A DNA stretch of 64,000 nucleotides from an uncultured Chitinophagaceae bacterium. GTDB lineage: Bacteria; Bacteroidota; Ignavibacteria; UBA10030; UBA8401. Of this stretch, positions 3,102 to 6,830 are shown one piece after another. The position numbers were made by a program, and so were the translations under genes. The notes beneath the pieces are model-generated. The model saw only the letters and a program-made list of their open reading frames with translations, searched no databases and was not told where the DNA came from. Position 1 is the stretch's first letter, and the number at the start of each line of letters is the position of its first letter. The stretch spans positions 212 to 64,211 of the forward strand of contig CAYJMS010000003.1 of assembly GCA_964371615.1 (NCBI GenBank), given 5' to 3'.

Positions 3102-3980
3102 ACGAAAAATATCACTTTAACAATAATTTTGGCATTGATTGTCGGGTGTCAAAAAGCAACATCAATAATAACTCCAAGTAATGATACAACCGGTAGTATT
3201 ATTATACTCAATAGTATAGCAATGAATATTTTTGGGATTGTAAATACCGATACGATTTATGCAGACCAATCCATTATTATGATTGACAGTATAAATGGAT
3301 ATTCGAATGGTTTGATAACACAAGGAGATGGACGATATTTATTACTTAATAAGTCCAAAGGAAAACATTATATCAATATTGAGCATCCCTTTTTTTATAT
3401 GTTTGACTCAGTTATGGATATTACATCTAAAACAATAAATATTAAATTAATTCCAAAAGTAGCGGACTTTCTTCCACTAAAAGTTGGAAACAACTGGATA
3501 TACCAATTTAAAACTAATTCATATGATCATGGGGTCCCTCCGAGGAGGCGCACATCCGGAGTAATTTCAGTTACAATCGATTCAGTATCTTCATCCCCCG
3601 GTCCATATTACATATATAAATACTGGTATGTAAAACAGGTGGAAATAGACACTCTTTATTATGTCGACAATCCCATTGTTCCCCCAGATTCTTTACGATA
3701 TACCAATGTTGAACGACATTATACAATAATTGAAGACTATAGACATGATACTCGATCAAGCATCTCAAATAATGTTTATGACCCATTTATTTTCTTTGAA
3801 AATTTGTATTACTATCCACGTTATAGAATACCGGATAATTCGGGGAATATCGTAGATCACGACAATAATAAATACACAAAAAATATTGGATTTATAGAAT
3901 CAAACATCACTTCGTCTGATCCCAATTATGGGACATATTATGAAAGACAGTATTGGTTAATTTCGTCAAATTTAAAATAA
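3102..3980 (+). CDS. Putative lipoprotein (start codon appears as ACG)
   Basis: In-frame ACG-KNITLTIILALIVG|C gives a complete lipoprotein signal; the ORF track starts later at TTG 3129. Confidence 0.7.
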   Translation, partial: TKNITLTIILALIVGCQKATSIITPSNDTTGSIIILNSIAMNIFGIVNTDTIYADQSIIMIDSINGYSNGLITQGDGRYLLLNKSKGKHYINIEHPFFYMFDSVMDITSKTINIKLIPKVADFLPLKVGNNWIYQFKTNSYDHGVPPRRRTSGVISVTIDSVSSSPGPYYIYKYWYVKQVEIDTLYYVDNPIVPPDSLRYTNVERHYTIIEDYRHDTRSSISNNVYDPFIFFENLYYYPRYRIPDNSGNIVDHDNNKYTKNIGFIESNITSSDPNYGTYYERQYWLISSNLK

Positions 3981-4057
3981 TATTTTGTGCCGTAACCAGG
4001 TACTGTGTAAAAAGTCAAGAATAAGAACGTAACTATTTCAAAGAACACGACAACAGA

Positions 4058-5068
4058 TTAGCGAAGACCAAAATCACGATCATAAGGGACGTTATTTTTC
4101 CAAAGAGTATAAATCAGCAGCAGTAATTTCCGAGCAACAGCAATCAGAGCCAGTTTTTTGTTTTTGCCTTTAGCAATCAATCGTTGATAGAGCGCCTTCA
4201 TTTGTGGATTATGCCGCACGGCAGACAGGGCAGGCATGAAGACGGCATGGCGTAAGAACCTATTCCCTTTTTTAGAGATGGAGGTTTTCCCTCTTTTTAG
4301 GCCCGAATCGTTAAAGACCACGTCATAGCCGGAATAACTGGCAAGTTGTTTTTGTTTAGTTACGAGTTTGAAGCACTGAGTCTCAGCCAGGACCGAGACG
4401 ACAGTCATAAAACCGATTCCTTTTGCCGTGCAGATGTTGGGAACCCGTTCACAAAGGATCGTATCAGTATCAATCAGTTCATGGAGTTCCTGTTCGATCT
4501 GAGCGAGTTGTTTCTCGAGCAAGGCGATAGTTTGCTGTTTGCGTTTAAGAGTTGACTTCAGAGGCTGAAAAGAGTATTTCAGGGCATGTCGCTGGTTTTT
4601 AATTTGGGTGATGGTCTCTTTCAAAGCGTGATATTCTCTGGTCAAGGCCTGCATGGATTTCATGGTTTCGGTAGGCGGAGTCCAGAGATTGAGTTCACGT
4701 TCCAACCCAAAGCGGGTGATCGCAGCAGAATCCAACGGATCGGTTTTGGATTTGGAAGTGAGGGATTTACAATAGTTTTTGATCTTATTCGGCAGAACAA
4801 CGGCAACAGAGCAATGATTTTCAACCAGGAAGTATGCAAGTTGCTGATAATAAATGCCGGTGGCTTCCATAACAAAGATGAGCGGGAGGTCGGGAGAAAT
4901 ACCCGCCGATCGGGTCCATTTCAATAGTTTTTTGAATCCTGACAATACATTATCGAACGATTGATCCGGTGTAAGAACAATGTGGTGCTTGGGATCAATG
5001 GTTCCGAACCGGACGTTGAATGTGTCCATGGCAATATCAATACCGACGATTTGTTTTAGGATACTCAT
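4058..5068 (-). CDS. IS110-family DEDD recombinase/transposase
   Basis: GIDIA, MEATG, KTDPLDS (DEDD RuvC-like); C-terminal SYSG...DSG...ISKKGNRFLR; AAGGAG RBS. Confidence 0.96.
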   Translation of the reverse strand: MSILKQIVGIDIAMDTFNVRFGTIDPKHHIVLTPDQSFDNVLSGFKKLLKWTRSAGISPDLPLIFVMEATGIYYQQLAYFLVENHCSVAVVLPNKIKNYCKSLTSKSKTDPLDSAAITRFGLERELNLWTPPTETMKSMQALTREYHALKETITQIKNQRHALKYSFQPLKSTLKRKQQTIALLEKQLAQIEQELHELIDTDTILCERVPNICTAKGIGFMTVVSVLAETQCFKLVTKQKQLASYSGYDVVFNDSGLKRGKTSISKKGNRFLRHAVFMPALSAVRHNPQMKALYQRLIAKGKNKKLALIAVARKLLLLIYTLWKNNVPYDRDFGLR

Positions 5069-5104
5069 AGAAAAACTCCTTATGTTTGGAGAGAAAATAA
5101 GGGT

Positions 5105-5343
5105 TCATTGGCACTTTCAGTGGTGATCTTGACTCGTCACATTATACAGGATTCCCGTTAATAGGATCCTAAAGTACTGTTCAGATTCTGCTGAAAATAC
5201 AAAGTCATAGGGAGGACGTCTTCTGGTTAACGATATTCTTTCCTGCTTGAAAGATATCTAGTCGCTCTTGCCTCTCCTATGACTTTGCCAATGTTTATTC
5301 GCCGATTCATTGGCGAAGACTTACAATACGGGGTTTTGATACT
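5105..5343 (-). ncRNA. Predicted bridge RNA of the IS110 element (ends approximate)
   Basis: 5' hairpin 5287-5314; target loop closed by 5200-5215/5271-5287 with guides at 5260-5267 and 5223-5229; donor loop with guides at 5172-5180 and 5133-5137. Confidence 0.85.
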
Positions 5344-5425
5344 TGGGTCAACATACGAGTCACTCACATTGACGTGACAACTTGGTTCCAGTCCGTTAGG
5401 CTGCACAGAAAGGAGTGCAATCGAT

Positions 5426-6097
5426 ATGAAAGACAAAATCATAATTGTATTTCTGCTTGTAATTGCGATTCTGCTTTCCTCATCGACAGGATGTAAGAAA
5501 AGTTCATCTTCACCTATCGAGCCTACTGATACCGATACAACCGGCGGCGGCCCTGTTGTTCGTAAGCCCAACATTTATTTATATCCGCAGACTAAAAGTA
5601 TTGTTACGGTAAAATTAGAGTTTCCGCTCGGCGGCAAAGTCATTGAATCAATACCTGCATATCAAGGTGAATGGGTTGTTGAAGTTGAACCATCCGGTAC
5701 AATAAGCGGTCAATACGATTATTTATTTTATGAGAGTCAAACTCCCGACGCATATCAGTATAATTCCGGCTGGATTATTGAGAAAGATAGTCTTGAATGG
5801 TTTTTCAGAGCCAATCTTTCTGCTGTCGGTTTTAATGAGCGTGAAATTACGCACTTTATTGACTATTGGATTCCACGACTCACGGTTTATTCACGCTATG
5901 TTATTTATCCACAATTTTCAAATGAAATTGAAAGAGTGATTAAACTACAAATCGATACAACGCCGGATAATTTATTGCGGCTTTTTTATGTCATTCAAGG
6001 TTCGGATACTATTACGCTGAACTTGTTTGAGCCGGTAATTCCGAAATTTGATAGAAGTGGTTTTGTAGCAACTGAGTGGGGTGTTATATTAAAATAA
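5426..6097 (+). CDS. Lipoprotein, KPxIYLYP-motif hypothetical family
   Basis: Signal peptide ...STG|C; RKPNIYLYP, YDYLFYE, FIDYWIPRL, EWG motifs; AAGGAG RBS. Confidence 0.8.
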   Translation: MKDKIIIVFLLVIAILLSSSTGCKKSSSSPIEPTDTDTTGGGPVVRKPNIYLYPQTKSIVTVKLEFPLGGKVIESIPAYQGEWVVEVEPSGTISGQYDYLFYESQTPDAYQYNSGWIIEKDSLEWFFRANLSAVGFNEREITHFIDYWIPRLTVYSRYVIYPQFSNEIERVIKLQIDTTPDNLLRLFYVIQGSDTITLNLFEPVIPKFDRSGFVATEWGVILK

Positions 6098-6255: not shown

Positions 6256-6528
6256 CTAAGCGGCGTGTTCGAGGTTTTGTTTGGCTGCGTATAGATCGCA
6301 CGCTACTTGCAGATTCATCCAGAATTCGGAAGAAGTTTTAAGGACGCGTGCAAGTAGCACAGCAGTTTCTGCAGTCATATTACGTTTGCCGTTGATAAGT
6401 GTATTCACTCTCTGCACAGGCACACCCATTCGGCGAGCCAATTCCAGTTGGCTCAGTTCCATCGGGCGTAAAAACTCTTCTATGAGAATTACGCCGGGAT
6501 GAGTCGGTTTTCTGTTTTTTGGTATCAT
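6256..6528 (-). CDS. higA: HigA-family antitoxin
   Basis: PTHPGVILIEEFL...SQLELARRMGV...EFWMNLQ. Confidence 0.93.
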   Translation of the reverse strand: MIPKNRKPTHPGVILIEEFLRPMELSQLELARRMGVPVQRVNTLINGKRNMTAETAVLLARVLKTSSEFWMNLQVACDLYAAKQNLEHAA

Positions 6529-6539
6529 TTTGAGGCCCT

Positions 6540-6830
6540 TTAATGATAATCAATAATTTGAACATCTTTTGCATTACCTTCAGACCATTCGAAGACAACT
6601 CTGTATTGATCATTGATTCGAATAGAATGCTTCCCTTTGTCATTGCCTTTGAGTGATTCCAATCGATTTGATGGCGGGATCCGAAGATCCATAAGATCGT
6701 GAGCCGCATTCAAAAGGTCGAGCTTTCTCACGGCGATTTTCCAAATGACAGAGGGTATTCGTCTGGCTTGTTTGGTGTCAAAACCATTGAAAATGTCTTC
6801 GGTAGTCCGGTCAAGGAAATTGATTATCAC
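6540..6830 (-). CDS. higB: HigB (RelE/ParE) toxin
   Basis: MIINF...RKLDLL...DLRIPPSNRLESLKG...HSIRINDQYRVVFEW...IIDYH; toxin upstream of antitoxin. Confidence 0.93.
   Translation of the reverse strand: MIINFLDRTTEDIFNGFDTKQARRIPSVIWKIAVRKLDLLNAAHDLMDLRIPPSNRLESLKGNDKGKHSIRINDQYRVVFEWSEGNAKDVQIIDYH

Follow-up and report, generated by a model that had tools for sequence, protein, structure and literature searches.

How an integrated insertion sequence (IS) and its excised circle could differ in expression is the question raised by a 1360-bp element lying in an integron cassette array of an uncultured Chitinophagaceae bacterium. The analysed stretch of 64,000 nucleotides (nt), referred to below as the window, corresponds to C3:212-64211 of the source assembly GCA_964371615.1 (3.84 Mb, 9 contigs; C3 is contig CAYJMS010000003.1). 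A preliminary description of the element at positions 3998-5357 of the window had proposed that a promoter reading into its bridge RNA and recombinase gene is created only upon circularisation. The data are probably best explained by an IS110-type element whose promoter, of the host's own type, is rebuilt across the circle junction by the junction-promoter logic already known for such elements.

Split hexamers and boundaries of the element

The features of the element needed for this argument are the following (window positions, all on the minus strand).

3998..5357, minus: IS110-type insertion sequence, 1360 bp counting one copy of the CT core, bounded by comparison of copies
4058..5068, minus: recombinase/transposase open reading frame (ORF), 336 aa, Pfam PF01548 and PF02371
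5076..5081, minus: ribosome-binding site AAGGAG, 7 nt 5' of the recombinase ATG, read from the sequence
3998..3999, minus: CT core copy of the right end, read from the sequence; the right-target-guide-like stretch ends in AG, which complements CT
5358..5359, minus: target-side CT core copy next to the left end, from sequence and flank comparison
4018-4013, minus: -35 half, TTGACT, in the right end, 13 nt ahead of the CT core
5355-5350, minus: -10 half, TATGTT, in the left end, 2 nt past the CT core
5343..5344, minus: predicted start of the junction-promoter transcript, placed 6-7 nt past the -10 half
5323..5351, minus: resident promoter-like site, TTGACC (5351-5346)-17-TATTGT (5328-5323), found by scanning (9/12) and present in integrated and circular forms

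The ORF matched both Pfam domains of the family, DEDD_Tnp_IS110 (PF01548, 8.5e-24, 84.5 bits, cut-off 29) and Transposase_20 (PF02371, 8.3e-19, 68.2 bits, cut-off 21.3). The non-coding ends comprise 289 nt upstream of the recombinase gene (left) and 58 nt downstream of it (right), and none of the inverted repeat pairs listed (25 of the 37 found) joins 3998-4030 with 5325-5357. By its domains, upstream non-coding region, lack of end-to-end inverted repeats, and guides, the element is an intact member of the IS110-type (bridge-RNA) subgroup.

The plus strand reads agtcaa at 4013-4018, aacata at 5350-5355, and ag at both 3998-3999 and 5358-5359, so the two minus-strand hexamers were present exactly where the preliminary description had placed them. 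When the ends were joined in silico via one CT, the spacer consisted of 13 nt of the right end, the CT, and 2 nt of the left end, and the spacing of 17 nt given earlier proved arithmetically correct. Both hexamers point to 5343, then to 5069, and then to the ORF at 5068..4058, i.e., into the bridge RNA and the recombinase gene, as had been proposed. The element thus shows the layout of a junction promoter, with a -35 box in one end, a -10 box in the other, promoter spacing upon joining, and the genes ahead. Compared with the Escherichia coli consensus, TTGACT matches at 5/6 and TATGTT at 4/6 positions (9/12 in total). The pair of hexamers alone is mildly unusual and constitutes weak evidence; it is the comparison with relatives that makes the case convincing.

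According to the proposed mechanism, the element would excise as a circle in which the right end joins the left end via one CT core. This joining would set TTGACT 17 nt upstream of TATGTT and create a sigma-70-type promoter, from whose predicted start, at about 5343, transcription would proceed through the bridge RNA to the recombinase gene. In the chromosomal copy, the halves are separated by 1.3 kb and point away from one another, and no junction promoter would exist there. Rare excision would then turn on strong expression, which would drive re-insertion, while basal expression in the integrated state would come from the resident left-end site and/or read-through. The formation of the circle, the activity of the promoter, and the transcript start are predicted here from sequence; two RNA contigs of X22 (151 nt, 4-6 differences) lie inside the ORF and tell nothing on the transcript start.

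The boundaries were established by other copies of the element. A second copy, 100% identical, is split between two contigs, with element positions 1-50 at the end of C4 (its last 50 nt) and positions 1310-1360 at the start of C3 (its first 51 nt). The matches stop at positions 1 and 1360, and past these points the flanking sequences have only short attC motifs in common. In metagenome run X5, a third insertion of about 96% identity was found, with another flank and in another attC. All three share the 14-nt attC motif TAACC-AG-[element]-AG-TC(A/G)CTCA with AG on each side. The left flank, one AG, and the right flank together read TAAC-NN-GTC-RCTCA, the local attC consensus, of which 19 exact sites were counted in the genome; the scarless restoration of attC suggested in the preliminary description follows from this sequence. 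Because the copies, the attC consensus, and the covarying guides of the left-end bridge RNA agree, the boundaries 3998-5357 proposed earlier are correct.

Conservation of the junction and competing explanations

A search for relatives of the recombinase gave one locus at 78% protein identity in the genome collection, in a Bacteroidota metagenome-assembled genome (the closest named relative), matches of 97% and 75% identity together with one weak partial match in metagenomes, and 19 genomes with a match at E <= 1e-40 among 401 genomes of the same phylum, including the source genome. Plasmid-borne relatives, from Hymenobacter and other Bacteroidota, were at most 46% identical and annotated just as IS110 family transposases. 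In total, 24 distinct elements were compared, with right ends anchored on the donor-end motif alone and the hexamer excluded from the anchor. This motif was detected in 19 elements, and TTG was located 19-21 nt before the core in all 19; right-end sequence further upstream of TTG was unconserved. Among the 15 relatives whose left end is visible, 12 have CT-NN-TATGTT at the tip of that end. The two nucleotides that separate the core from TATGTT are variable, and the right donor guide changes with them (CG/ACGAG, CA/AUGAG, CC/AGGAG), while TATGTT is invariant, so guide pairing fails to explain its conservation. When circles were built in silico, the junction site appeared at the same place above the scan threshold in 8 of 12 elements, and 8 of the 12 linear forms lack any site at that threshold. 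Since guide-paired bases vary and TTG lies outside the donor sufficient for IS621, the sequences point to transcription as the simplest reason for the constancy of TTG and TATGTT.

The promoter type of the host was characterised from its tRNA genes. Sigma-70-like sites were found upstream of 11 of the 42 genes, compared with 4.1 +/- 1.7 (at most 10) in shuffled sequences. TATATT was the most frequent hexamer (14/42), often with CG ahead, and one tRNA-Met promoter reads TTGACT-17-TATATT. The Bacteroidetes-type promoter (TTG-N18-22-TAnnTTTG) was also considered as the host type and was dropped, with no occurrence in 43 tRNA upstream regions. Judged by these predicted promoters, the junction site fits the host's own type. 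The sequence, geometry, boundaries, conservation in relatives, and fit to the host promoters are established for the junction site.

A number of observations weigh against the junction promoter, and they are considered here together with the rival explanations. Five of the 24 relatives could not be anchored (L015, for which no sequence was available, L020, L022, L027, and L028), among which the L020 group (G108) has a very short right end outside this layout. TATGTT is missing from three of the 15 visible left ends, namely L016, the L018 group (G240), and the L028 group (G123); the latter two groups have no -10 box at the fixed offset from the left tip, and conservation of the target may blur the boundaries that comparison of their copies gave. 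In 4 of the 12 circles, the site fell below the threshold, with TTG and TATGTT kept and a weaker -35 box (TTG only). The relatives share kinship, so the counts overstate independence. Neither a circle joint nor an empty-site joint was detected in the assembled contigs of X4, X3, X5, and X22, where contigs drop rare forms; the loose contig ends in X3 and X4 are flanks of copy 2. Sites of equal quality also occur at the chance rate, with five in window positions 3800-5600 against 4.2 +/- 1.7 in 50 shuffles. This rate, about 0.0012 per start position and strand, translates into a probability of some 2-3 in 100 that a site spans the junction and faces the right way. That both hexamers are a functionless chance match is nevertheless very improbable: relatives with unrelated flanks, some with only about 31% protein identity, keep them at constant offsets, the protein identities of 31-53% argue against recent copies of one element, and the family offers precedents for a junction promoter. 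Another explanation is that TTG and TATGTT are kept for recombination, as contacts of the recombinase or the guides on the donor, and that their likeness to a promoter is incidental. TATGTT is located 2 nt from the core, within the region contacted by the donor guides and the recombinase, and the right-end tip beside TTG is likewise conserved; part of the TATGTT conservation may indeed serve recombination, since the hexamer overlaps donor sequence. As the whole explanation, recombination is unlikely, given that the guide-pairing nucleotides change, and do so in step with the guides, while TATGTT and TTG stay constant, that TTG is positioned 19-21 nt ahead of the core, and that the hexamers match host promoters at exactly the optimal promoter spacing. 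Moreover, a 22-bp IS621 donor without the -35 box was recombined with bridge RNA supplied from another promoter (PMC11208160).

The rival that bears most directly on the claim of a promoter made 'only' by circularisation is the resident left-end site TTGACC-17-TATTGT, which could drive the bridge RNA and the recombinase gene whether or not a circle is formed. Expression would in that case not depend on the circle, and the junction hexamers would contribute little; this explanation is compatible with the existence of a junction promoter. It scores 9/12, the same as the junction site, and this equality counts against 'only'. The site is kept in the four closest elements, that is, the window copy, L008, L007, and, as the equivalent TTGCTA-18-TATACT, L009, although the spacer sequence varies among them. 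Its -10 box has CG ahead, like several host tRNA promoters, and in L007 and L008 it ends 6-7 nt ahead of the conserved closing stem CATTGGC of the bridge RNA, which would give a neatly started RNA. An integrated element also needs some expression for excision (PMC13626964). In the eight more distant elements, by contrast, the resident site is absent at the scan threshold; among these, L012, L013, L023, and L029 keep the junction site at the threshold and L014, L019, L024, and L033 keep just its TTG and TATGTT halves below it. TATTGT matches the host -10 hexamer TATATT at 4/6 positions against 5/6 for TATGTT, and a resident promoter leaves the invariant TTG of the right end unexplained. That this site is the main source of expression is possible, with the balance of evidence somewhat against it.

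A second potential source of transcripts lies beyond the left end. An integron cassette at 6256-6830 (minus strand) encodes a HigB-like toxin (PF05015, 7.8e-22) and a helix-turn-helix antitoxin (PF01381, 1.4e-10) and is transcribed towards the element. Read-through from this higB/higA cassette is possible because no terminator-like site was found on the minus strand between it and the left end. As the resident site and/or read-through probably give basal expression, circularisation probably boosts expression of the element rather than being strictly required for it. The junction-promoter reading is supported with respect to the ends, core, geometry, conservation, fit to the host, and family precedent, and its restriction to the circular form is not supported.

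Bridge RNA guides and the attC target

The guides of the bridge RNA and the parts of the interrupted attC site are listed below.

5106..5293, minus: core of the bridge RNA with target and donor stem-loops, closed by CAUUGGC/GCCAAUG, from the fold and inverted repeats I2 and I5
5260..5267, minus: left target guide GAGCGACU, equal to the left flank and core of copy 2, L008, and L007, with one mismatch to copy 1
5223..5229, minus: right target guide UAACCAG, the reverse complement of the core and right flank CTGGTTA, covarying with the flank in relatives
5173..5180, minus: left donor guide ACAGUACU, matching the last 7 nt of the right end and covarying with the right-end tip in relatives
5133..5138, minus: right donor guide (G)ACGAG, complementing the core and the first 3 nt of the left end
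3989..3997, plus: 5' (R'') part of the interrupted attC, gccgtaac-c, from sequence and flank comparison
5360..5401, plus: rest of the interrupted attC, closing with R' gttaggc (5395-5401), from sequence and the attC list

The left-end RNA folds into the two-loop layout of a bridge RNA (-71.1 kcal/mol, z -3.26), and an RNA in the left end with two internal loops and guides fitting both target and donor, as in IS110-type elements, was thereby found. In an alignment of 12 left ends, compensatory changes were observed in every one of the seven pairs of the inner stem of the donor loop; the MAFFT alignment was poor outside this loop, and the consensus fold predicted only these 7 pairs. No Rfam family matched anywhere in the window at the gathering thresholds, and a bridge-RNA family may be missing from that library. 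In 8 of 12 elements, a 7-nt right target guide with AG at its end was identified within the left end, at 90-147 nt, and these guides gave a clearer signal in the exact-substring search than the left target guides. The latter search was weak for several elements, because a single mismatch or wobble breaks the match; for the window copy, shuffles attained the observed length in 141 of 200 cases.

Compared with L007 and L008, the left end in the window carries a 24-nt insertion at 5296-5319, which folds into a short hairpin (CUUCGCC...GGCGAA) and in which GCCAATGAA from the bridge RNA's 3' closing stem occurs again. In the donor loop, the 3' side (...GAGUCAAGA, 5127-5141) complements the -35 stretch of the right end at 4006-4020 (I6; 12/15, 8 contiguous nt). 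This complementarity is conserved in the closest relatives only and may be due to chance.

The insertion point is 2 nt past the R''-like box of an attC site (4 nt counting the core). The sites in question are imperfect palindromes with RYYYAAC ... GTTRRRY ends beside an integron integrase gene, as expected of attC, and in the predicted fold of the restored site the two ends pair (-11.0 kcal/mol, bottom strand). The integrase gene is located at C4:435859-436800 on the minus strand (TIGR02249, 444 bits, cut-off 265). From its first attC-like site, at C4:437559, the array continues past the end of C4 into the start of C3 and the window. The cassette array extends away from intI on the plus strand, so that the element, with its gene on the minus strand, is antisense to it. 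An insertion beside R'' would be expected to divide the attC hairpin, and excision to make it whole again; the 'reversible lock' on cassette mobility suggested in the preliminary description is a hypothesis drawn from this sequence logic.

The list of attC sites in the genome was compiled with up to 2 mismatches, the count of 19 given above referring to exact sites. Most of these (11/19) read TAAC-AC-GTC without the AG core, and the commoner form is of the TAACACGTC type, as against the TAACCAGTC-type target of the element. Only two perfect target sites of the bridge RNA (TAACCAGTC[AG]CTC) exist in the whole genome; both are occupied, and none is empty.

The complete chromosomal integron extends over C4:435859-445637 and C3:1-about 6300 (window 1-about 6100) and spans the C4/C3 contig break, which is due to the second IS copy located there. 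Further attC clusters with no integrase hit nearby were found at C1:196.8-206.8 kb, C1:1270-1279 kb, and C5:27-30 kb. The cassette ORFs flanking the element, 3129-3980 (283 aa) and 5426-6097 (223 aa), have no Pfam match at E <= 0.01; the N-terminus of the 223-aa product is lipoprotein-like. Two decayed right-end remnants of a related element, 78-83% identical, were detected at C1:1280208-1280463 and C2:185807-185896. The right-end tip and TTGACT are still present in both, and the C1 remnant adjoins an attC-like gccaaacc.

Unusual arrangements were also observed in two relatives. On a metagenome contig, the 75%-identical relative (L009:597-740) is nested in an incomplete duplicate of its left end. 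The duplicate comprises the first 131 nt of that end, and the full element begins after CCCCATGA-CT, the 3' stem of the target-binding loop. This arrangement resembles the outcome of an off-target insertion of the element into itself, at a site of the GACT type. The genome G240 carries four copies of a 37%-identical relative whose left-end tip lacks TATGTT; the three copies fetched (L018, L030, and L037) are all followed by the same 18-20 nt. The complement of this stretch begins with GCCTAAC, and the lineage may target an attC-like repeat at another offset.

Relation to known elements and significance

A promoter rebuilt upon circularisation is a known trait of the IS110/IS1111 families, described in PMC11208160, PMC11187229, and PMC13626964, and the junction promoter reported here involves no new mechanism. 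The seekRNA paper reports a circle-generated promoter for both families, demonstrated for ISEc11 and ISEc21 (PMC11187229). A 2026 paper describes integrated IS621 as weakly expressed by read-through, with the junction promoter boosting expression after rare excision (PMC13626964).

Like IS621 and other IS110-type elements (Durrant et al. 2024, PMC11208160; PMC13626964), the present element has a DEDD recombinase with both Pfam domains, a CT core, a long left end upstream of the gene that encodes an RNA with target and donor loops, and a promoter rebuilt over the junction of the right and left ends with the -35 box in the right end. Its target is an integron attC, in contrast to the REP-like repeat of IS621; its host is an uncultured sediment bacterium and the element is known from sequence alone; and its 289-nt left end contains a possible second, resident promoter.

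In the layout of its ends, the element also resembles ISEc21 (NZ_LT903847.1). As read in this study, TTGACT lies there at a distance of 14 nt from the tip of the right end, AATAAT is located 3 nt inside the left end, and the spacer between them measures 17 nt. The target of ISEc21 differs, being a conserved stretch of IS3-family transposase genes. Pjunc of ISEc11 is similarly arranged, with the -35 box in one end and the -10 box in the other, and is active only with the ends abutting. Junction promoters split between the ends are also found in circle-forming insertion sequences of the IS3, IS30, and IS21 types, in which the chemistry of the transposase differs.

In target behaviour, the element resembles the IS1111-attC group (ISPa21, ISPst6, and ISKpn4), whose members belong to the same DEDD superfamily and form circles. 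Their reported insertion sites lie close to the 5' end of attC, with the inserted element in antisense orientation to the transcription of the cassettes (PMC3001079). It stands outside that group despite this likeness. According to PMC11187229, IS110-type elements have a long non-coding region upstream of the gene, and IS1111-type elements have the guide RNA region downstream of it and subterminal inverted repeats. The element has the former layout, with its long non-coding region upstream (289 vs 58 nt) and without end-to-end inverted repeats, and does not show the latter. A literature search for IS110-type elements aimed at attC returned just papers on IS1111-type elements or general surveys, the original IS1111-attC papers being outside this search.

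The mildly novel point is therefore that an element of the IS110 type, and not of the IS1111 type, is aimed at attC. A tentative and rather doubtful extension is that the target loop of an IS110-type lineage has become directed at the portion of attC close to R'' in a chromosomal integron, in convergence with the IS1111-attC group of unrelated layout, and that the element switches individual cassettes between fixed and mobile states. Such switching would follow from the splitting of the R'' hairpin on insertion and from a scarless excision that amplifies itself via the junction promoter.

The promoter itself adds nothing new to the biology of IS110 elements and provides a clean, well-bounded natural example of it. 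About 20 related elements from one phylum make it possible to separate the junction positions constrained by transcription (TTG and TATGTT) from those constrained by the guides, and such constraints help to annotate bridge-RNA elements and to predict their transcript starts. The analysis documents an IS110-type element programmed for attC sites. Its bridge RNA is a natural, attC-directed one with three independent insertion sites, and the element and its host integron would offer a defined case for asking whether occupancy by an insertion sequence freezes cassettes.

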